DNA of 64,000 nt from Thainema sp. (GCA_052168235.1 JBQLZK010000036.1:11498-75497), one strand, 5' to 3'; positions 53 through 45,254 are shown, numbered from the stretch's first letter. Translations and numbers: made by a program. The notes: generated from the sequence alone by a model not told the origin.

Positions 53-904
53 TCATTGAATCAGCGATTTGAATTCGGGGTGCTGCTGGAGATTGTTGAA
101 GCTGGCATCCGTGCGAGCCATCATGCGATAGAGGCCAGGGCTGAGGTCGATGGCTCGTCGGAGGTTGCAGATGGCCAGGTTAACTTGATTGCAGAGTGCG
201 TAGGTGCTGGCCTTGCCGTACCAGGCATTGGGATTGTGGTGCTTGTATTTGAGGGAACAGTCGAAGCTTTTCAGCGCTTCTTCATAAGAACCAAGGCGAT
301 TCAAGACGACACCGCGATAGTTCCAGGCGTAGTAGCAGTCCTGCTTGATCATCACTGCTGTGTCGAGACTGTGCAGCGCTTCCCGATAGCGGCGCAGGGC
401 TGCCAGAGCGATGCCTCGGTTATACCAGGCCCGGTAATTTTGGGGCTTGAGCGCCACTGTTTTGTCAAAACTTTCCGCTGCTTCCCGATACTGATAAATC
501 CGAATCAGCGCGTTGCCCCGGTTGTACCAAGCCTTTGGGTCATCCGGACGATATTTGAGCGCCTGATCAAAGCATTCAATGGCAATTTTGTACTGACCCA
601 ACTTGGCCAGGGAAATTCCTTTACCGTGCCAGGCCAGAGCATAGGTGGGCGAAATTTCTAGGCAGCGATCAAAACTTGCGATCGCAGCGTCGTAGGATTC
701 CATCTCGTAGAGGGCATATCCTCGATTGTTCCAAACCTCGTAGTTAGCGGGTTCAACCTCTAAAACCTTGTCAAAGCGGGAGATCGCTCCTTCGTAGCGT
801 CCCAGTTCGTACAGCGCATTACCATGACTGCACCAGGCTTGAGAGTCTGTGGCTGTTTGGTCTGATTGGGTTGAGGTCGAAGAATCAAACACAGGAGATC
901 CCAA
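53..904 (-). CDS. Tetratricopeptide repeat protein
   Basis: About 7 tandem 34-aa TPR units (AWYNRGNAL...A...FDKA); TTG start uncertain. Confidence 0.9.
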   Translation of the reverse strand: MGSPVFDSSTSTQSDQTATDSQAWCSHGNALYELGRYEGAISRFDKVLEVEPANYEVWNNRGYALYEMESYDAAIASFDRCLEISPTYALAWHGKGISLAKLGQYKIAIECFDQALKYRPDDPKAWYNRGNALIRIYQYREAAESFDKTVALKPQNYRAWYNRGIALAALRRYREALHSLDTAVMIKQDCYYAWNYRGVVLNRLGSYEEALKSFDCSLKYKHHNPNAWYGKASTYALCNQVNLAICNLRRAIDLSPGLYRMMARTDASFNNLQQHPEFKSLIQ

Positions 905-1403
905 ATAGTAATGTAACGCCCTTTCTGAGTCCAGTGTTCCCAGTTTTTATCAATGCTTATAAAGTATCGCTGTAGAAAAAGATAAGCAAGGGTAAAGCTC
1001 AATACCTGGACTAAATTTTATCCAGTTGAACCCAAATCGAGCTGGAAATGCGGTTAAATACACGACTCAAAGCCCATTTACCAACTGGATTCTGCTGCTA
1101 TACACTGTCTCAATTAGCCCCAACGACGCTATTTAAATCTAATTAACAAAGAACGTTGACTTACTAACGAAAAAATACGCTGTAAATCTAGCAAAGTTAC
1201 GGATTTTTCCTCCCTAGAAGAGGATGCTTTAGGTATTTCTGCTATTTGATATCAGTACTTTTAGCTAAAGCTTTAACCCGAAAGCTTTTATTTATTTATT
1301 ATTTAAGTGTCCCACACCGTATATCTTTCAGGCAATAGCTCGTTTGCTACTCAAGCAAACATTCAATCTGCTTAATTTTACGTAGAGACCTCACGTTAAT
1401 TGC

Positions 1404-1419
1404 TGTAACTGTGGCTACA
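1404..1419. promoter_or_regulatory. NtcA box TGTA-N8-TACA upstream of the TPR gene
   Basis: tGTAactgtggcTACa; TAAAAT lies 24 nt downstream on the minus strand, slightly longer than the usual 21-23. Confidence 0.55.
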
Positions 1420-1438
1420 AATCAAGGTGTTGCTGAAT

Positions 1439-3760
1439 CTACGAATTGATCACTCTTGACCGTGATTTGATGTGAGGTTTAGCGTGTGACATCACCGATG
1501 ATAGCGGGCGCAGTGAACGACTCTGTTTCAGGTGATTCAGGGTGCGCTGGATGCGGGCGGCATTAACTTCATCCTGCTGGGCTACTAGGCATGCAACGGC
1601 CTGTTCCAAATCCGCGATCGCATCCCCAAGCCGCTCCATCTGGTGATAAATGGCGCTGCGGTAGCAATATAAAAAAGCCTTGTCGGGAGCCTGCTCAATG
1701 GCGCGGCTAATATCTGCGATCGCGGCTGAGAAATGGCCCTGCTGCTGATAAATTCGGCCCCGGTAGAACCACGCGATCGGCGAATTGGGATTGATTTCGA
1801 TGGCGGCCTCAAAGCTCGTCAATGCGGCAGCCCAGTTGCCCTGCTCCATTTGGATCTTGCCTTGGTTACAGTAGGGCACGATTTGATAAGGCTGACACTG
1901 AATGGCTTGGCTGAGGTCGGCTAAGGCTGCAGCGAGATGGCCCGAGTCGTAATAGGCTAGTCCTCGATTGTTGTAGGCCACGGCATCCCGTGGATAAAGG
2001 TGGATTACCTGAGTGAAATCGGCAATGGCTCGGGACTGATCGCCTAAGTCGTAGTGGGTAACGCCGCGATTAAAAAAAGCGGCAGCATCCTGATCATCAA
2101 TTCGAGAATGATGGAATCGCTGGATAAGCCGTCGCACAACGGTTGGATCGGTGGTTTGCAGCTTCAAGCCGACATTGGGAATGACGGCAGATTGGGTCAA
2201 AATGCTGTGCAAACCGAGGACTGCAAAAGTGCGATCGCAGACCAAAAAATTCTCATCAGTGCCCAACACTTTGAAACGGAATCGATCGGCATAGCGCTGC
2301 TTCAAGGGCAGGAGCTGATTGAGCATCGATTGGAGATGCTGACGATGGCGCGGATAAGTATGCCACTGCTGCTGGATGGGAGCTAGCCAGCGGCCCTCTC
2401 TGCGATCGCCACGATGGCACCAGCCAATTTCAACCCGCACCCGTCGTTCGAGCAGCTGCTCTAGTTGGTGAATCACCCCAGCATCCAGTCCGTCTTGGTC
2501 TAACCACGGCCAAACCAGCAAAACCTGATTCTGAGCCTGGGCCAAAATCGATTGCAGCATCTCATGGCTTGCATCGCTAGACGACTGCGCTGACTGATCC
2601 GCTTTCCCCCGGTTGATCACGCTGGCAAAATCAAACAGTAGTTGATGACGGTGGGTCTGCGCGAATTGCTGTTTCGTATTGAGCAATTCTGTTTCCGTAT
2701 CGTCTACCCGTGACGAGAGAACCTGCACCTGCTGCTGAAGAGCAGCCATATCGAGTGCCGTCGGCAAATGATGAGCGATTTGCTGCATGATCGTCTGGAC
2801 AGTGGCTTGCTCTGTCCCCAACTGCGCTTGCTGCATCAGCCCATCTAGTTGGGTTTGGAACTGCACAATTTCGGCCTGTAGACGATCAAACTGGATGGAT
2901 TGAGCCCCCACCACATCAACCATACGCAGCTTTTCATTTAGCATGACCATTGCCTGCTGCAAATCATGCTGCTGCAGTTGTAGATTTTCGAGCTGATGGT
3001 TAAGGGTCATGAAGTCTCGCTTTGGCACCAGCTCGGTCAGCGACTTGATAATTTCAGTCACTTCCTGCTGCACCATGGTTAAGTCATTGGTGCGAATGAG
3101 CCACTGAAGTTTCAGCCCCAGATCATCAATTTGATCTTGGAGGGGATGAATTGTGTTGCGAGCTTCGTGACTGACGCTTTCTAGCCCAACCCGGATTTGC
3201 ACCGCTTCCATTTGCAGCTGGGTCAGAACCGCTTCTAAATGCTCTAGCCGTGACGGGGCTGGAATTTGGTGCAGTCGTGAGTAAACTTGTTTAATGCTCC
3301 ATTCCATCTGGCTGTAGCGGTCTTGCAGATGCTCGGTTTCTTTGTGAATATGGCTGAGGTCAAAATGCTCCAGTTCCCATAAACAGCGATTCACCTGCTG
3401 CTGCAAATCGTCAACCCGATGCATGGCATCCTCCAGGATATGCTGATTGCGGTGGATGATGGCCTGCTGAAACTGATGAAAGGCTTCTGAAGAGGGCGAA
3501 TCTTCCACCTGAGTTTCAACTTGTATCAGTCGCTGAAGCAGGTTAGCTTCGGTGTTGGCCAAACGGCCTCTGGTCTGAAATAGTGCCTGCTGCTGAAAGC
3601 GCTGGCGATTGGCGATGTTGCACCCAGCCAGCAGCGCTAGGGGTGCGATCGCAAACACCACGTTATGCAACACAACGGCAAGGGTGGTTCCTATTCCTGT
3701 CAGCAGGAGCAAGATGTATTCAGTCCAGTCTAGCCAGTGGCGCTTGCGGAGGATCAGCAT
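1439..3760 (-). CDS. Membrane-anchored coiled-coil / PLD-like / TPR protein
   Basis: N-terminal hydrophobic helices, long Q/L-rich coiled coil, PLD-like segment (VLLVWPWL...GTDENFLVCDRTFAVLG), C-terminal TPRs; start set at ATG 3760. Confidence 0.75.
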   Translation of the reverse strand: MLILRKRHWLDWTEYILLLLTGIGTTLAVVLHNVVFAIAPLALLAGCNIANRQRFQQQALFQTRGRLANTEANLLQRLIQVETQVEDSPSSEAFHQFQQAIIHRNQHILEDAMHRVDDLQQQVNRCLWELEHFDLSHIHKETEHLQDRYSQMEWSIKQVYSRLHQIPAPSRLEHLEAVLTQLQMEAVQIRVGLESVSHEARNTIHPLQDQIDDLGLKLQWLIRTNDLTMVQQEVTEIIKSLTELVPKRDFMTLNHQLENLQLQQHDLQQAMVMLNEKLRMVDVVGAQSIQFDRLQAEIVQFQTQLDGLMQQAQLGTEQATVQTIMQQIAHHLPTALDMAALQQQVQVLSSRVDDTETELLNTKQQFAQTHRHQLLFDFASVINRGKADQSAQSSSDASHEMLQSILAQAQNQVLLVWPWLDQDGLDAGVIHQLEQLLERRVRVEIGWCHRGDRREGRWLAPIQQQWHTYPRHRQHLQSMLNQLLPLKQRYADRFRFKVLGTDENFLVCDRTFAVLGLHSILTQSAVIPNVGLKLQTTDPTVVRRLIQRFHHSRIDDQDAAAFFNRGVTHYDLGDQSRAIADFTQVIHLYPRDAVAYNNRGLAYYDSGHLAAALADLSQAIQCQPYQIVPYCNQGKIQMEQGNWAAALTSFEAAIEINPNSPIAWFYRGRIYQQQGHFSAAIADISRAIEQAPDKAFLYCYRSAIYHQMERLGDAIADLEQAVACLVAQQDEVNAARIQRTLNHLKQSRSLRPLSSVMSHAKPHIKSRSRVINS

Positions 3761-4002
3761 GGGAGTGGGTGAGGGGTAGATATGATGGCTCTTTTCCCTC
3801 TTTCCATCCCGCCACCGCACATCAGGATAAGCGACTTAATTTACCGAAAAACACGGAGAAAACTCAGCAACAAAGCGCAATAAAACTTGCTAAGCATCTC
3901 AAGTCTGCGTATGAGAATCCAGGAAATAGTCCCACCTTTATTAGCGCAAAACGCAGGGTGGTTTCGTTTAGACAGAGAATAATTTAGAACGATAAACGTT
4001 GC

Positions 4003-4030
4003 GTAGGGGCGAATGGCCATTCGCCCCTAC
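4003..4030. repeat. REP-like palindrome GTAGGGGCG...CGCCCCTAC
   Basis: gtaggggcgaatggccattcgcccctac; related copies elsewhere in the window. Confidence 0.8.
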
Positions 4031-4111
4031 CAGATCCGTGAAATGGCGACTTTAGAATTTATTTTGCAAAATGAAACCACCCTGCTTATTAGCGCAAGAA
4101 GCGCTATGGGA

Positions 4112-4567
4112 TCAGATCAGCAAATTAAACTCTTTGAGCGCAGGTAAAAAGTTTTTGTTTTCATGGCTGGGGCGACTGAGTTTAATCAGCGCAAATCGCT
4201 GCAGCGGTGTGAGCGACTGCCACTGTGATAGGTTAATCTGGGCATCAAACTCTTCAGCTTTCGCCTGAGTTTGCGGGGGAACGGTGGTGGCATCTAGCCA
4301 GTCTGGATTCGGATCAATATCCAGTGTTTTGGCCGGACTGCCGTTGTACTGTTCCACTAACGATTGAGTGCGATCGCAATAATCCTTCACTTCCCCTGGC
4401 GTTTCACAGGGCAAATTCACCAGCATTTCCCGTTCAGCCTGACTGAACTGGTGCCAGTGTTCCAGCTTCAGCTTCACACCACAGGTATCGAGCTTGTAGC
4501 GCACCTGCATCGGAATGCAGCGGAGAGATTCAACAAAATCAGATTCAAACTTAAAAAATTCAGCCAT
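4112..4567 (-). CDS. narM: Nitrate reductase associated protein NarM
   Basis: FESDFVESLRCIPMQVRYKLDTCGVKLKL and RFALIKLSRPSHENKNF motifs; downstream of narB. Confidence 0.9.
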   Translation of the reverse strand: MAEFFKFESDFVESLRCIPMQVRYKLDTCGVKLKLEHWHQFSQAEREMLVNLPCETPGEVKDYCDRTQSLVEQYNGSPAKTLDIDPNPDWLDATTVPPQTQAKAEEFDAQINLSQWQSLTPLQRFALIKLSRPSHENKNFLPALKEFNLLI

Positions 4568-39485: not shown

Positions 39486-41666
39486 CTAAAAATTGGGCTT
39501 CAGCGGCAATAATACCGTTACCTGCGTCCCGCCAAGCGCATCTGATGACTGAATCGTCAGCATGCCGTTGTGAGCCTCAATGATTCGTTTAGTAATGGCC
39601 AAGCCCAAGCCGTTGCCGGAGGATTTGGTAGTAAAAAATGGCTTGGTCAACTGGGCCAGCGTCTCGGCTGGAATGGGTTCGCCCGCGTTGAACACATCGA
39701 CATGAATCTGCTGCTTAGCGGTGTTGAGGCTGACGGTACAAGTGACGCAGGTTTGAGGCGAAACGGCTTCGCAGGCGTTGCTAATAATGTTAATAAACAC
39801 CTGATGCAGCTTATCGCGATCGCACTCCACCCAGGCGGGCTGATCGGACGGCGTGAGCTGAATGAGTCGTTCAACCGCAGCAGGCATTTCCCGCAGCGGC
39901 ACCAGAATTTCTTCCAGAAACTGATTTAGTTCCAGTCGCTGATACTCCAACTGCTGCTGTTTGGCATAGAGCAAAATTTCGTTCAGCAACCGCTGGAGCC
40001 GCTCCGATTCCTCTAGCGCCAGTTCCAGACGCGCTTGAAATCGCGGCGACAAGTCCAACGACTTAAACGAGTTCAGCCCCATCCACACGGTGGTCAGCGG
40101 ATTGCGAACTTCATGCACGATCATGGCCGCCAGTTCGCCAATTTCGGCCAGCCGCTCCAGTGCCTGCTCGGTCTGCTTGCGCTCGGTGATGTCCCTAGCC
40201 AGCGCTAAGATAAACGACTCGCCACAGGCGGCAAATCGACCTGCCCGCACTTCCACCGGAAAAACGGAACCATCGCGACGCCGATGGGTACCCGTCAGCG
40301 TAATCGGAATACCTGGCTGAAGCTGCTGCCAGAGCTGCTCAAACTCGGCCATTGTGATCTCCTGCTGCACATCGGTGACGAGCATTTGCAGCAGTTCCTC
40401 GCGGGAGTACCCCAGATTTTGGCAGGCTTGCTGATTCACATCGGCAATTTTTCCCGCCTGCGTCACCACGAAAAAGGCATCGGCAGCCTGTTCAACCAGG
40501 GCACGGAACCGCATTTCGCTACCGCGCAGCGCTTCCTCCATTTGCTTGCGCTCGGTGATGTCATTCACGACCGAGAGAATGCAGTCCTGCTGATTAATTG
40601 TGATCCGCTCTGCCGAAAATAAAACAGTGTGGAGCTGATGGTTGCGATCGCAAAACTGATATTCCTGATTAAACACCATGCCCTCGGCCTGAACCTGCCG
40701 CACCATCTCAATTCGATCTTGATGATTCACCCACAAATTAAGCGCCCAGGACATTTGACCAATCACGTCTTCGCGTTCTGCCCCATATAGGGCCAGAAAA
40801 CTCTGATTCACTTCGATGATTTTCCCGGCTTCTAAGGTGCTGATGATGATCGGGTTGGGACTGGAGCGAAAGGCTTTAGAAAACTTCTCTTCCGATGCCC
40901 GCAGACTGGCTTCAGCCCGATCCCGTTCTGCGATCGCATCTGTCACCTGCTGATACATCTGCTCAAAGGCGGCAATCATGTCGCCCAGCTCATCCTGACG
41001 CCGAAACCGCAGTGAGCTGAACTCCGGCGTAGGGTGATTCTGTCTCGCCGCCTGCCCTGCCCGCAGCAAATCCTGGCGCAGCAGCAGAATCGGCGTAATC
41101 AGCATCGGCTCTAGCACAATCAGCGTCGCCATCGTCACAAACAGCGAGATGATCAGCACCAGTCCCGCAATCCGGGCAATAAACAGATAGACTTCCCGCC
41201 GCACACCGGAGGCATCGTGGCGAACGACCAGAATGTATCGTCCGTCCAGCGGCGACATTTCCCACACTGCATCGTAGCGGCGATCGGCCCGATTCAGATA
41301 ATCTGTGCGGCCATTCTGCACAATATCCTGAATAGAAAGCTGGGGCGGTTCGCGAAAGCTGCCGACTAAATCGCCATCGGCTTCATACAGTGCGCCCCCT
41401 TTGACGTTGGGCATCTGCTCAAGTTGCTGGAGTCGTTCTAGCAGTTCGACCCCGGATAGCGCCGGTTCACTTTGGCTAAGAATGCCGGAGGCTTCGGCAG
41501 TTGAAAGTTTTTCTAGGTAGTCCAGTAATTCCCGCTCTCGCCGATAAACGGAGGGGATGAGAATGATGGCTTCAATCACGACAATGCTGGCAAATACCCA
41601 CAGCACAATCCGCCGCGATAGACGCGCTTGGAATAAGTGGAGTAAGGCTTGGGCACGGGTTCTCAC
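39486..41666 (-). CDS. HAMP-PAS-PAS sensor histidine kinase
   Basis: Two TMs, DELG HAMP, two PAS/PAC domains (DITERKQ), HEVRNPL, PFFTTK..GNGLGL. Confidence 0.92.
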   Translation of the reverse strand: MRTRAQALLHLFQARLSRRIVLWVFASIVVIEAIILIPSVYRRERELLDYLEKLSTAEASGILSQSEPALSGVELLERLQQLEQMPNVKGGALYEADGDLVGSFREPPQLSIQDIVQNGRTDYLNRADRRYDAVWEMSPLDGRYILVVRHDASGVRREVYLFIARIAGLVLIISLFVTMATLIVLEPMLITPILLLRQDLLRAGQAARQNHPTPEFSSLRFRRQDELGDMIAAFEQMYQQVTDAIAERDRAEASLRASEEKFSKAFRSSPNPIIISTLEAGKIIEVNQSFLALYGAEREDVIGQMSWALNLWVNHQDRIEMVRQVQAEGMVFNQEYQFCDRNHQLHTVLFSAERITINQQDCILSVVNDITERKQMEEALRGSEMRFRALVEQAADAFFVVTQAGKIADVNQQACQNLGYSREELLQMLVTDVQQEITMAEFEQLWQQLQPGIPITLTGTHRRRDGSVFPVEVRAGRFAACGESFILALARDITERKQTEQALERLAEIGELAAMIVHEVRNPLTTVWMGLNSFKSLDLSPRFQARLELALEESERLQRLLNEILLYAKQQQLEYQRLELNQFLEEILVPLREMPAAVERLIQLTPSDQPAWVECDRDKLHQVFINIISNACEAVSPQTCVTCTVSLNTAKQQIHVDVFNAGEPIPAETLAQLTKPFFTTKSSGNGLGLAITKRIIEAHNGMLTIQSSDALGGTQVTVLLPLKPNF

Positions 41667-41756
41667 AGCCAGCCACAGATGATTACTGCATCACTTATTA
41701 TGTCTCAATCCGTCTCTTTGCTCTCGTCAAAGTTATACAGCGATGTGGATGCAAGT

Positions 41757-41974
41757 GCGATCGCACTTGCTCATGAGACTGCGATCTCACTTGCGGTGCT
41801 ATAACTGGCATGGTTCGCAATGGGAATGTATCTGTGCATTGAATTGCGATCGCATTTCACCATTGAGTCATCAGGAGCGATCGCACTTGGCTGGTGAAAC
41901 TGCGATCTCACTTGCGGTGCTATAACTGGCATGGTTCGCAATGGGAATGTATCTGTGCATTGAATTGCGATCGC
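41757..41974. repeat. HIP1-bounded tandem duplication
   Basis: Identical 76 bp at 41778-41853 and 41899-41974; HIP1 at 41757, 41846, 41877, 41967. Confidence 0.85.
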
Positions 41975-41985
41975 GCTGCTGCACC

Positions 41986-42055
41986 GCAGAACGCTTGGCT
42001 TTGCGGCGTACCGGAGCGCAGCGTAGGTGCGTCCGCCAACAGCCAAGCGTTCTGT
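41986..42055 (-). other. attC-like site of cassette 2
   Basis: ACAGAAC...GTTCTGC, 70 bp, three unpaired bases on one arm, 9 bp after the stop codon. Confidence 0.65.
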
Positions 42056-42064
42056 GATGGTAGC

Positions 42065-42469
42065 TCACTCTGGCAGACCCTCGAACTTTGGCACTTCCCC
42101 TAACTCTCCATCCCAGGCAGCTTTGCTAGATGTGAAAATGTGCGCTGTTGGTAACATAGAGATCTTAGTGTCCAAACACCCTGCGGGAACGACGAGCAAA
42201 CCTGCGATCTGAGTGCTTGGCAATGCTGAACCACACAACTTACAAAAACTTTTATTGTGACGAGTGCCCGGAAGCGTAAAGGAAGTCACAGCATCGGGAC
42301 CCGACTGCCAGATCAATTTAGCTGACTGTGAAAATAGATTTGCCGCATGAGCAGAACCTGTGTCCTTTTGGCAATGCTGGCAATGACACAGGTAAAAGCT
42401 ATCGAAGTCGCCTTTTACCTCAAACCTCACAGTGCCACACAGGCAAGAACCGAAATAATCAGTCATCAA
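42065..42469 (-). CDS. GFA/CENP-V family zinc protein (cassette 2)
   Basis: GSCLCG, CHCQHCQK, FCKLCGS, HIF..SKA.W. Confidence 0.88.
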   Translation of the reverse strand: MMTDYFGSCLCGTVRFEVKGDFDSFYLCHCQHCQKDTGSAHAANLFSQSAKLIWQSGPDAVTSFTLPGTRHNKSFCKLCGSALPSTQIAGLLVVPAGCLDTKISMLPTAHIFTSSKAAWDGELGEVPKFEGLPE

Positions 42470-42499
42470 AACCCCTTCTACAGCCTGTGGGCAAATTAC

Positions 42500-42588
42500 A
42501 CATAACGCTCCGCTTCACCCGCCGCAGACACCCTTTCGGACTCAACTAGCGGTCTCTACACGGTCGGTGTGCAAGCGGATTATTAGGC
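42500..42588 (-). other. attC-like site of cassette 1
   Basis: R'' GCCTAAT, arm CCGCTTgCACaCCGaCCG pairing with CGGCGGGTGAAGCGG, R' GTTATGT; 89 bp. Confidence 0.75.
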
Positions 42589-42595
42589 ATCGCTA

Positions 42596-43489
42596 CTATA
42601 GCGTACATCTCCGAAGCTCTATGAATTCTTCATCAGTTAAAGAACCTGTTTTTCCAAGTCTTTCGTTAATTCTTCTTGCTGTGGGATCGATATCATGAAC
42701 CGCATGCGCATAGTAACAGTGTGGTCGTATGAACTCAATAACAAACGGCTGGTTTTCTACTGCTGATCGCACCCATACTTCTCCTGGCACATCAAATACC
42801 AAATAAATATCTTTACGATTTTCCACTCCAAAAATCTCTGTAACTGCTGCAATAAGCTTATTAATTGCAACAGGAGCTATGGATTCAAAATCGTAGTCTT
42901 CATTGTAGTGAATGCTTTCGTGCCGAATTGGCATTAATTCGCGGAATAAATTTACAGCATTTTCGGGAACTAATTGCCAGTCAGCAATCAGGTCTAGCAT
43001 TTTTCCCCAGTCATCAAAACTAGATTTCCGGTAAATCTTCTTATACTCAGGATGTGACTTGAAATAGCCTCGTGTCTTTAGCACAAGTCGATTTAGGATT
43101 CTTTCTGCTAAACAACAGGTTGATGTTACTGCTGGGTAAAAGTATCCCAGACAGTAAGTGTTAATAATTTGTTGAATTTTGTATGCATATTCATCAATAA
43201 GAGCAATTGGAGGATAGTCAATTTTCTTCCATCGCTCAAATTTCTCCATGAAATCAGTCGATCCAAGTTCAACTTTTAGTTGCTTCTCAATTTCTACAGT
43301 CAATTCTTCTAACTCTGAAGAGCTAAAAATCCTGCGTCGTGTATCAACGTGAAATTGAACAAGCCGGTATCGACGATCAAGAGAAGGACAAAGAAAGTTT
43401 ATTGCTTCCTCGCCCCGGTTTTGTTTCTCAGAAACAGAAATCGTATGGTTTTGTCCACACACTAGACAAGCTATATCAACATTAATCAT
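42596..43489 (-). CDS. Hypothetical protein with Rx4H HEPN-like motif (cassette 1)
   Basis: RHESIH, N-terminal CxxC...C; AT-rich. Confidence 0.65.
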   Translation of the reverse strand: MINVDIACLVCGQNHTISVSEKQNRGEEAINFLCPSLDRRYRLVQFHVDTRRRIFSSSELEELTVEIEKQLKVELGSTDFMEKFERWKKIDYPPIALIDEYAYKIQQIINTYCLGYFYPAVTSTCCLAERILNRLVLKTRGYFKSHPEYKKIYRKSSFDDWGKMLDLIADWQLVPENAVNLFRELMPIRHESIHYNEDYDFESIAPVAINKLIAAVTEIFGVENRKDIYLVFDVPGEVWVRSAVENQPFVIEFIRPHCYYAHAVHDIDPTARRINERLGKTGSLTDEEFIELRRCTL

Positions 43490-43521
43490 CCAAAAATCTT
43501 CTTACATTAAATTCAACGATT

Positions 43522-43601
43522 TGTATGCCTAACAATTATTAGACTGAATCTTTCTGTATAAGATCCCTCATTGGGCGATTAAGCTGAAAAATTCAGTATA
43601 A
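43522..43601 (-). other. attI-like / dif-like site with two direct repeats
   Basis: GTTAGGC core at 43533-43527; TGTATGCCTAA-CAATTA-TTAGACTGAAT; 24-bp repeats at 43538 and 43578. Confidence 0.5.
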
Positions 43602-44074
43602 CCACCCCACAATTCCAAACTCACGCTGTTTAGAGTTTATTTATCATCCCTCAATATATATTCACTCCATGCTGTCGTCTCAGTACGATCGCAAATTTTG
43701 CAGAGTGCATTGATGGAATGTAACGCCTTTTCTGTTTAAATCTGAGGTGAGGCTGATATTTGGAAAAAGTGCGATCGCACTGACCTAGTATTTCTGTCAG
43801 TGAACCTAGATTGACTCCGCAGACCAAATCTCGTACTGTGAAACGTTAAGTTGCCATGCAAACATCACCTGCACTCGGCAACTGGATACCAAAAATCTAG
43901 TCAACGCGACCCAGAATTGCTGACACCAACTCTGAGCCGCTAACCCCAACGTTGGTCTAGCAACGCAGGGCTCAGGAGATTATAACCCTCCTGTAGCCCC
44001 CCTGCTTTGCGCTTCAAATCGCGGGGGGGCTAGATTTTTGGCTTTCCTCCGAAAGTCAAAAACAGGAGAACACA

Positions 44075-44356
44075 ATGACATATTTCATCCTCGGTGCTGC
44101 CACCAACGCAGCGCCACAGCCTGCTGCGACCCATACCAGCGTTCCACAGCGCGACAGTCGCCATCCCCTGCGGATTATCCTGCTCGGCACTCGCCCCGAC
44201 ATCATCATCACTGTCAAAAACCTGCATCGACGCGGCTTTGCCGAAGCCAACGAATGGAGCCAGCCGATTCCCTGCCCCAGTGCAGGCGACGTGGCGCGGC
44301 TCCTGCCCCGTCACCCCGATGATCAGCTCAGCATCCTGACTCGCTATCTGAGCTGA
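44075..44356 (+). CDS. Small cyanobacterial hypothetical protein
   Basis: AGGAG RBS; LH.RGFAE..EWS.P...SILTR pattern recalled from cyanobacterial hypotheticals. Confidence 0.65.
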   Translation: MTYFILGAATNAAPQPAATHTSVPQRDSRHPLRIILLGTRPDIIITVKNLHRRGFAEANEWSQPIPCPSAGDVARLLPRHPDDQLSILTRYLS

Positions 44357-44372
44357 TTGCCCTCACCTCTTC

Positions 44373-45254
44373 TCATGATGCCTGCCGAAACATCCCATGT
44401 CCGCGCAGCAAGTCCAGGAACATGAAGACAGCGGGCGAGAGCAGTGTATCAGACAGTGTGACAGCACCGATGACGCGTTCGAGTGGTACAGGTAGCGATC
44501 GCACTTGCACCCCGTCGGGAATCGGTAATGCAGCCAAGCGAGGCAAGATGGCAGCTCCCAGTCCCTGAGCGACCATGCTGACAATGGTGGAATCTTCCTT
44601 AATCGTGTAGGCCACGGTCAGCGGTTGATTCCACCTAGCCCAGTGTTCGCGCACGGCAGAGGTGCATTCGGCATAGTTGAGCAAGATAAACGAGTGCATC
44701 GCCAAAGCCTGCCAGGTCAGCACGTCGGGGACGGGGCCAGCGGCTTCTGACAGCAGCGCCACATATTCATCGCGTACGATTTCCCAGCTATCAAATTCGT
44801 CCGATCGCGGCAGGGGAACGAGGCCAATATCGACCTGGCCTTCCCGCAGCGCTTGCTCAATCCCTGCCGGATCGTTTTCCACGATTTCCACTTCTACGGT
44901 GGGAAACCGATGACAAAACTGAGCAATTTTCTGCGGCAGGATATGGGTGGCAACGCTGCGAATCGAGGCAATCCGCACCCGCCCACCGTGCAGACCCTTC
45001 TCACGATTCACCTCATGCTCCATGCTGTCCCGCAGTTGCACAATCTGCTCCGCATGGGCAATCACCCGCTCACCAATCGGTGTAGGACGTGCGCCGAATC
45101 GTCCCCGTGACAGCAGCGCCACACCTAACTCGTCTTCCAAAGCTGCGATCGCACGACTGACGGCTGACTGGGACAGATCCAGCGTCTGAGCCGCCAGGGA
45201 AAAGCTGCCGCAATTGACAACCGCCAAAAGAATCCGCAGGTGAAAAATGTTCAT
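44373..45254 (-). CDS. LysR-family transcriptional regulator
   Basis: GSFSLAA..L..SQSAVSRAIAALEDELG plus substrate-binding domain. Confidence 0.95.
   Translation of the reverse strand: MNIFHLRILLAVVNCGSFSLAAQTLDLSQSAVSRAIAALEDELGVALLSRGRFGARPTPIGERVIAHAEQIVQLRDSMEHEVNREKGLHGGRVRIASIRSVATHILPQKIAQFCHRFPTVEVEIVENDPAGIEQALREGQVDIGLVPLPRSDEFDSWEIVRDEYVALLSEAAGPVPDVLTWQALAMHSFILLNYAECTSAVREHWARWNQPLTVAYTIKEDSTIVSMVAQGLGAAILPRLAALPIPDGVQVRSLPVPLERVIGAVTLSDTLLSPAVFMFLDLLRGHGMFRQAS

Follow-up and report, generated by a model that had tools for sequence, protein, structure and literature searches.

A probable decayed integron with its attachment site and two gene cassettes in the chromosome of the cyanobacterium Thainema sp.

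How does an array of integron-type gene cassettes come to stand in a cyanobacterial chromosome with no integrase beside it? This question is raised by a locus of Thainema sp. that lies within a 64,000-nt stretch of its chromosome (GCA_052168235.1 JBQLZK010000036.1:11498-75497), hereafter the window, to whose numbering the coordinates of the locus refer. A preliminary description, made from the sequence of the window, had noticed two consecutive open reading frames (ORFs), each followed by a hairpin resembling an attC recombination site, and had proposed an array of the CALIN type (cluster of attC sites lacking integron integrases) loaded in trans. The follow-up reported here draws on the genome itself (G000; 99.99% complete, 205 contigs), on a congener (G001; 99% complete), on further relatives and on metagenome contigs; C with a number denotes a contig. 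The locus is very probably a decayed chromosomal integron, in which a docking site and two genuine cassettes have outlasted a lost integrase.

Both cassettes are read from the minus strand. Cassette 1 (42506..43532, 1027 nt) consists of a 43-nt leader, ORF1 (42596..43489, 297 amino acids, aa) and attC1, and cassette 2 (41992..42505, 514 nt) of a 36-nt leader, ORF2 (42065..42469, 134 aa) and attC2. The stop codons occupy 42596-42598 and 42065-42067, and the R'' boxes of attC1 and attC2 start at 42588 and 42055, that is, 7 nt and 9 nt past the respective stops. On re-reading, the coordinates and motifs first described were all borne out, as was the arrangement of two same-strand ORFs with a hairpin less than 10 nt past each stop. 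The cassette ends also behave as had been claimed. After the G at 43533, cassette 1 starts with TTAGGCAT (43532-43525), to which its R'', ATGCCTAAT (42590-42582), is complementary at 8/8 bases with an additional G.T wobble; cassette 2 starts G(42506)↓TTATGTG, the arrow marking the crossover, and its R'', CACAGAAC, pairs with this start at 7/8 bases with one mismatch. Complementarity of each cassette start to its own R'' is the footprint of a circular cassette that has recombined at G↓TT. A consensus promoter scan found no promoter in either cassette leader, and its single plus-strand call within cassette 2 belongs to the opposite strand. Each cassette therefore has the make-up of an integron cassette, namely a single promoterless ORF, an attC on its 3' side and a start complementary to its own R''.

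The two hairpins differ in form. In attC1 (42500..42588, minus strand), R'' GCCTAAT is followed by a 3-nt unpaired spacer, by stems with single-base bulges on the R'' arm and by a variable loop, and the site closes with R' GTTATGT; the last base of R'' is T, giving G.T with the G of R'. The second site, attC2 (41986..42055, minus strand, 70 nt), is shorter and paired throughout, its R'' being ACAGAAC and its R' GTTCTGC. When the coding strand was folded as single-stranded DNA and compared with dinucleotide shuffles, z was -2.69 for attC1 (1 of 200 shuffles as good) and -3.08 for attC2 (none of 200), the two z-scores obtained for attC2 being -3.08 and -3.93. Where single bases are left unpaired, they are in the 5' (R'') arm, as read on the coding strand. 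Similarly, the RNAalifold consensus of seven sites, including the two of the window, comprises an R box and two stems of 6 bp each, with a 3-nt unpaired spacer between the R box and the first stem, a bulge between the stems and a variable loop at the end; 12 of the 18 pairs have compensatory changes. This is the canonical anatomy of attC, in which the R box is closed by AAC/GTT and followed by a spacer and an L-type stem, with additional bases on the R''/L'' arm.

Covariance models were used for searching, since naive counts of AAC...GTT hairpins are swamped by other repeat families. One model, R2, was built from six attC sites of other G000 arrays only, the sites of the window being excluded; the other, R1, was trained on seven sites including the two of the window. 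Over all 64,000 nt, on both strands and with filters off, R2 returned 15 matches at E<=10, headed by attC1 (42497-42591, minus strand, 37.8 bits, E 1.1e-7) and then by attC2 (41983-42058, minus strand, 18.1 bits, E 0.022), with a third match at 14.5 bits (E 0.2). With R1, attC1 scores 71 bits as a member of the training set. Furthermore, R1 gave at least 20 matches at E<=1 in G000, a lower bound because 150 of 1664 first-look candidates were scored; these comprise the 7 training sites, 1 near-duplicate, 1 reverse-strand row and 11 new sites, three of them on one strand of C58. In the wider family alignment of 31 aligned matches from 22 sources (26 sites and 5 reverse-strand rows of the same sites), which is model-fitted in a way that favours pairing, standard pairs fill 88.2% of cells against 25.6-39.8% with the partners slid, and covariation scores 0.352, a value to which slid partners do not come close (0.097 at most) and which none of 500 shuffles attains. 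AAC and GTT are near-invariant there, in 28-29 of the 30 rows with letters once 1 gapped row is set aside. The arrays on other platforms of G000 have the same layout of same-strand ORFs, each followed by an imperfect palindrome of 86-89 nt with ends such as GTCTAAC...GTTAGAT. Searching by primary sequence was less informative: blastn of attC1 and attC2 against G000 gave no significant sequence relatives, and when 41000-45000 was compared with Rfam at E<=10, the four matches obtained were fortuitous, to eukaryotic lncRNA, miRNA and snoRNA families. Rfam is not known to hold an attC family.

Could the hairpins instead be ordinary terminators or dispersed palindromic repeats, and the ORFs ordinary chromosomal genes? 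Hairpins past stop codons are common, and G000 is rich in hairpin repeats, with other families dominating its AAC...GTT hairpins. By a loose filter these hairpins are not enriched in the genome (2992, against 781-4309 for other triplets), and with stem scoring they number 900 against 204-636, an excess that comes from other repeat families. An abundant hairpin repeat with ends like TGAAAAC...GTTCTTA, present in tens of copies (e.g. G000 C1:275815-275887) and unrelated to attC, dominates a naive palindrome search. However, no T-tract terminator is called at attC1 or attC2, both sites fit the structure model with its compensatory changes, and the cassette ends are complementary. Moreover, cassette 1 is present or absent as a precise unit, as described below for a soil contig, and the orthologous locus of the congener has different content. 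This explanation is contradicted by the covariance support and by the different gene content in a relative, and we regard it as scarcely credible.

What the cassettes stand on is the second part of the answer. Cassette 1 adjoins a conserved platform of ~180 nt (43711..43533, minus strand), recognised by its similarity to paralogous platforms elsewhere in G000. The stretch 43683..43571 is 85-88% identical over 112-114 nt to copies on G000 contigs C41, C71, C80 and C1, which makes five close copies including that of the window. Two of them carry longer N-terminal remnants of the integrase gene, intI: the C41 copy overlaps the start of a 107-aa ORF matching positions 1-62 of the 315 of TIGR02249 (69.6 bits), and the C71 copy has a shorter, frameshifted remnant. 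Alignment with the C41 ORF and with the other copies identifies an intI stub in the window, made up of the start codon and 4 further codons (43669..43683, plus strand). Between the stub and the cassettes lies the attI region, an intI-attI intergenic region of ~135 nt (43533..43668, minus strand) that ends at the crossover G and includes a single hairpin unit of ~41 nt (~43551-43590, minus strand) and the attI core TCTAATAATTG (43533-43543, minus strand). All platform copies align up to a core TCTAAT-AAT-(A/T)-G↓TTA and then diverge at once; in the window the crossover G of this core is 43533 and coincides with the start of cassette 1. The C41 platform is 83% identical over 165 nt (locus L013) and 76% over 208 nt (L015) to the region immediately upstream of intact intI in relatives, which identifies the platform as this lineage's intergenic stretch between intI and attI. 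By this homology, and by the similarity ending at G↓TTA, it is recognised as an attI site.

Most platform copies (L002 2360-2480 on C41, and those on C71, C80 and C1) hold three tandem ~41-nt hairpin units, where the window and its G001 ortholog hold one. Bounded by GCCTAAT and GTTAGGC and with a single additional base in its 5' arm, each unit resembles a small attC site; the units may be integrase-binding repeats or recombination sites. A -10-like TATACT (43595-43600, minus strand) is invariant in all platform copies and is the candidate element of a platform promoter from which the array is probably read. Further platform copies or fragments, more decayed at 75-85% identity, lie at C125:8210-8378, C4:35481-35602, C60:47584-47638 and C56:51049-51089; an attC match of 52.3 bits is found ~1.9 kb downstream of the C4 fragment on the same strand.

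These features place the locus among known kinds of element. The definition of a CALIN that accompanies IntegronFinder (Cury et al., 2016, PMC4889954) asks for two or more attC sites within 4 kb, with no intI inside the same distance. Operationally the locus is a CALIN, with two attC sites 533 nt apart and no integrase within 4 kb. The earlier classification stands by the IntegronFinder definition and can be refined: the array sits on an attI platform with a 5-codon intI stub, and hence is a decayed integron and not a product of a secondary site. An origin of CALINs at secondary, non-attI sites through an integrase encoded elsewhere is discussed in PMC4889954, and the lack of an integrase in the window would agree with it. 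Yet cassette 1 adjoins a conserved attI core and an intI stub that are homologous to platforms beside intact intI in relatives. A secondary-site origin is contradicted by this homology to attI regions, and we consider it highly improbable.

No tyrosine recombinase is encoded in the window, as had been stated at the outset, and no intact IntI in the assembly either. The search of G000 with TIGR02249 gave a single N-terminal fragment, the one on C41 (positions 1-62 of 315), and no intact intI; five matches to PF00589 were found in G000, none of which also matched TIGR02249 at E<=0.001 and all of which lie off the contig of the window. A functional intI beside the array, the mark of a complete integron, is thus missing, 5 codons being left of it in the window. 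Integron integrases and attC sites of the type seen here are nevertheless common in related cyanobacteria. In a survey of 61 genomes (G000 and 60 relatives), TIGR02249 was matched above its curated cut-off of 265 bits in 30, mostly at 440-489 bits, and at E<=1e-10 in 49, where many matches are fragments; R1 gave attC matches at E<=1e-5 in 56 of the 61, with 70 candidates scored per genome. Twelve loci around an intact intI were examined with 1.5-kb flanks only, and R1 sites were found in 5 of the 12 (L015 at 69.3 bits, L007 at 65.6, L013, L009 and L010). In all five the attC lies upstream of intI and on the opposite strand to it. As in these complete integrons, the locus of the window has the same attC type and the same attI-region sequence upstream of intI, but it is without integrase and its attI region has one ~41-nt unit against three in most copies.

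If the integrase has been lost, have cassettes moved since? Comparison with the congener indicates that cassette content differs at the orthologous locus. Identity there is 92% in the kinase flank and 87% in the platform, and the intI junction, the single hairpin unit and the core are as in the window. After G↓TTA, however, a single different cassette follows, encoding a 225-aa GNAT acetyltransferase. It starts with TTATACGGC, its attC opens with the R'' GCCGTATAAC, complementary at 10/10 bases, and this attC scores 68.9 bits with R1 and 65.9 bits with R2. The cassette-1 protein was searched for in G001 and not found, and the GNAT protein has only paralogues of at most 37% identity in G000. 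A second orthologous pair, on G000 C1 and G001 C80, is built in the same way: identity across flank and platform is 89% and is lost at G↓TTA. In G000 two cassettes (an HNH endonuclease; a PIN toxin-antitoxin pair) precede a distal cassette shared by both genomes, and in G001 one cassette does so, with a 228-aa ORF and an R'' complementary to the cassette start at 10/10 bases; the shared RHH-MazF cassette is 86% identical. An extra module stands upstream of the platform at G001 L022 1940-2942 (C15), comprising an ORF of 250 aa, an attC-like site that scores weakly (26.3 bits) and one copy of the 121-nt repeat described further below, and it is inserted where the intI stub of the window ends.

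Metagenomes supply a third form of the locus. Among sequencing runs, none contained more than 0.17 of the sequence words of the locus; no RNA run was listed as containing them, and reads of the strain itself were not found. Contigs of four metagenome runs were aligned to 41900-43750 at 85% likeness. In the soil run X9, one 718-nt contig (depth 3.6) covers 43750-43530 and resumes directly at 42502-42164, leaving out 1027 nt, with 4 ambiguous letters at the joint, which is exactly cassette 1 (42506-43532). Cassette 2 thus stands directly at attI on this contig, and the platform part includes the truncated intI junction. The metagenome evidence for a form lacking cassette 1 is good, although not conclusive. 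Further X9 contigs carry attC1-like sequence (42503-42585) that differs at 10 of 83 nt and is set between stretches of unlike DNA; the same attC type thus serves other cassettes elsewhere. In X1 and X3 (wastewater, bioreactor; the X1 contig is 35,650 nt long), only 42503-43567 is represented, by a copy that differs at 52 of 1065 nt (~95% identity) and passes into unlike sequence at either end. Mobility of the cassettes as units bounded by G↓TT crossovers is accordingly seen in natural variation and not in an observed reaction.

Three cassette sets have therefore been found on the same truncated platform: cassettes 1 and 2, cassette 2 alone, and the GNAT cassette. It follows that site-specific events at G↓TT post-date the loss of the integrase and, the intI truncation being common to the variants, that the integrase most likely acted in trans. 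The reason first given for loading in trans, the lack of a recombinase in the window, was insufficient; the different attI-proximal cassettes on truncated platforms in G001, in the metagenome contig and in the second pair are a better one. On this turnover of cassettes after intI loss, we lean slightly towards an integrase supplied in trans. In such a mechanism, an IntI-type tyrosine recombinase would recombine the folded bottom strand of the attC of a circular cassette with attI; the enzyme would come from another integron or from a transient element, and cassette 1 would have been inserted in front of cassette 2 by attI-proximal entry. The array is probably frozen now.

A different history, in which the integron decayed and no integrase ever acted in trans, must be weighed here. 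Cassettes would have been loaded where an integron worked, and whole alleles would then have been imported by homologous recombination, for instance by natural transformation, with the platform and the distal flank as arms. Several observations agree with this: G000 and G001 have both borders of the variable part in common (the platform, at 87% identity, on one side and the sequence past the last attC on the other), the distal cassettes of the second pair are shared at 86%, and the X1 and X3 copies carry 35 nt of attI core besides the cassette. In addition, an intact intI is missing from both genomes, the sole intI fragment of G001 (positions 1-63) is a 92.7% match to the C41 stub, and the two species apparently have every intI remnant in common, that of the C41 type among them, so no resident enzyme is evident since the split. 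On the other hand, the three forms share the truncated intI junction, which would demand donors with truncated platforms too, or crossovers within ~180 nt, and the differences fall exactly at G↓TT. Import of whole alleles is in our view unlikely as the explanation.

Beyond this locus, loading in trans suggests a broader picture, which we offer tentatively and with rather less than even confidence. Filamentous cyanobacterial genomes may each hold several orphan attI platforms, from which intI was deleted before the two species split and which still gain and lose cassettes at the attI crossover through a trans integrase that is absent or transient. Their attI would consist of one to three ~41-nt units, each with a GTTAGGC core and perhaps a miniature attC-like site.

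Several points weigh against the interpretation as a decayed integron with mobile cassettes. By the independent model R2 alone attC2 is marginal (E 0.022, E-values being rough), its R'' and R' deviate from RYYYAAC/GTTRRRY, and the R'' of attC1 closes in AAT and not in AAC; attC2 is accepted because it lies 9 nt past a stop, on the same strand, with a conserved downstream flank. An intI could hide in unassembled sequence, given 205 contigs. The joint of the empty site comes from one low-depth contig (3.6) in one run, at 85% likeness and in a relative (~90-97% identical), and this contig may be chimeric. In X1 and X3 the match takes in a further 35 nt of attI core beyond the start of the cassette, more than would be expected if the cassette had moved by itself. 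A simple consensus promoter scan makes no call in the platform (43533-43711). Finally, cassette movement is known from sequence variation and not from an observed excision circle, transcript or recombination.

The ORF1 product of cassette 1 has a Zn-ribbon and a putative HEPN-like region, and it is probably an RNase-like protein of HEPN type with a role as defence factor or toxin, judging from fold or family only. Searches of Pfam, NCBIfam and PADLOC gave no family for this 297-aa protein. Its own family has 115 members at E<=0.001, those named being 'hypothetical protein' and none having a Pfam domain, and the few members with organism labels span several phyla. On a contig of a metagenome-assembled genome, a 61%-identical homologue lies between attC matches (28.9 and 29.6 bits) within a series of same-strand ORFs; in the locus search for the protein, 1 of 37 pattern matches was confirmed. 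The ORF2 product matches Pfam PF04828 (GFA) at 91.7 bits, and cassette 2 probably encodes a GFA-family zinc enzyme, again from family only. Sister arrays in G000 (L003 11141-13386, L004 9973-12930, L024 156-5900) hold cassettes of defence or toxin type: TIR-Mrr (Mrr_cat), trypsin-NACHT (870 aa), HNH endonuclease, VapC-like PIN, RHH-MazF and DUF433-PIN (PIN_10). Cassettes of this sort have been described for chromosomal integrons (10.1101/2024.07.02.601686).

Compared with described systems, the locus is at once familiar and unusual in its legibility. CALINs and intI pseudogenes are well described (PMC4889954, PMC2426708). Like the CALINs of PMC4889954, it has two attC sites that share a strand and follow one promoterless ORF apiece, and it lacks a nearby or intact intI. 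What sets it apart is that its origin can be read, as a 5-codon intI stub and attI are still attached. That survey lists intI loss among the origins of CALINs and reports intI pseudogenes near only 15 of 279; its pseudogene search needed more than 50% profile coverage and would miss the stub of the window. The locus also resembles the sedentary chromosomal 'pseudo-integrons' of Nemergut et al. (2008, PMC2426708) in being chromosomal, with intI inactivated, several loci per genome and cassettes without assigned function, and in the toxin-antitoxin or defence-like cassettes of the sister arrays. It is unlike them in that its arrays are very short (2-3 detected attC sites each) and at least 5 platform copies are dispersed, and in that a truncation to a few codons is common to two species, yet the attI-proximal cassettes differ. 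The preliminary remark that little work has been done on integron arrays of cyanobacteria is fair as regards papers devoted to them, a phrase search of the literature having found no paper that names cyanobacterial integrons in such wording; however, integrons in Cyanobacteria are on record (PMC4889954, PMC8618304, PMC2426708) and a Cyanobacteria-specific attC covariance model has been published (Ghaly et al., 2021, PMC8352920).

The surroundings of the array complete the description. On the minus strand, from high to low coordinates, the order is a LysR gene, a dispersed repeat, a short spacer, the platform, ORF1, hairpin 1, ORF2, hairpin 2, two direct repeats and a histidine-kinase gene. The LysR-type regulator gene (44373..45254, minus strand) has Pfam HTH_1 and LysR_substrate domains. 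The dispersed repeat of ~600 nt (43765..44367, minus strand) lies between this gene and the intI stub, in the place expected for intI. It has at least 14 further matches in G000 at 78-91% identity, 10 near full length and the rest partial, and at least 9 copies in G001, and it contains a conserved 93-aa ORF (44075..44356, plus strand, without Pfam family) behind a conserved non-coding leader of ~300 nt. Synteny between G000 and G001 is broken at this repeat, which may be a mobile element or a small gene family.

On the other side, two direct repeat copies (41757..41974, minus strand), found as blastn self-matches between the last attC and the histidine-kinase gene (41666..39486, minus strand), are 96% identical over 98 aligned nt with a period of 121 nt and are bounded by HIP1 sites (GCGATCGC). 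They are the distal flank of the array and not a cassette. In G001, relatives of this 121-nt-period repeat come after attC-like sites, in one case upstream of the platform. The short flank after R' of attC2 (GCGGTGCAGCAG) is kept after the last attC in both G000 and G001. The host, a filamentous cyanobacterium, is Leptolyngbyaceae-like; for one neighbouring gene the closest relatives with a name come from Kovacikia and Leptolyngbya, at 74% amino-acid identity.

To conclude, the decayed integron is real, fairly ordinary for related cyanobacteria and of a known kind, and it leaves the general picture of integrons unchanged. Its value lies in showing how one CALIN arose, with attI and five codons of intI still in place beside the cassettes, something rarely seen. 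The locus adds cyanobacterial cassettes of likely defence or toxin content to a phylum whose integrons are known from surveys. Furthermore, the natural before and after forms of one cassette insertion make the loading of integrase-less platforms in trans testable.

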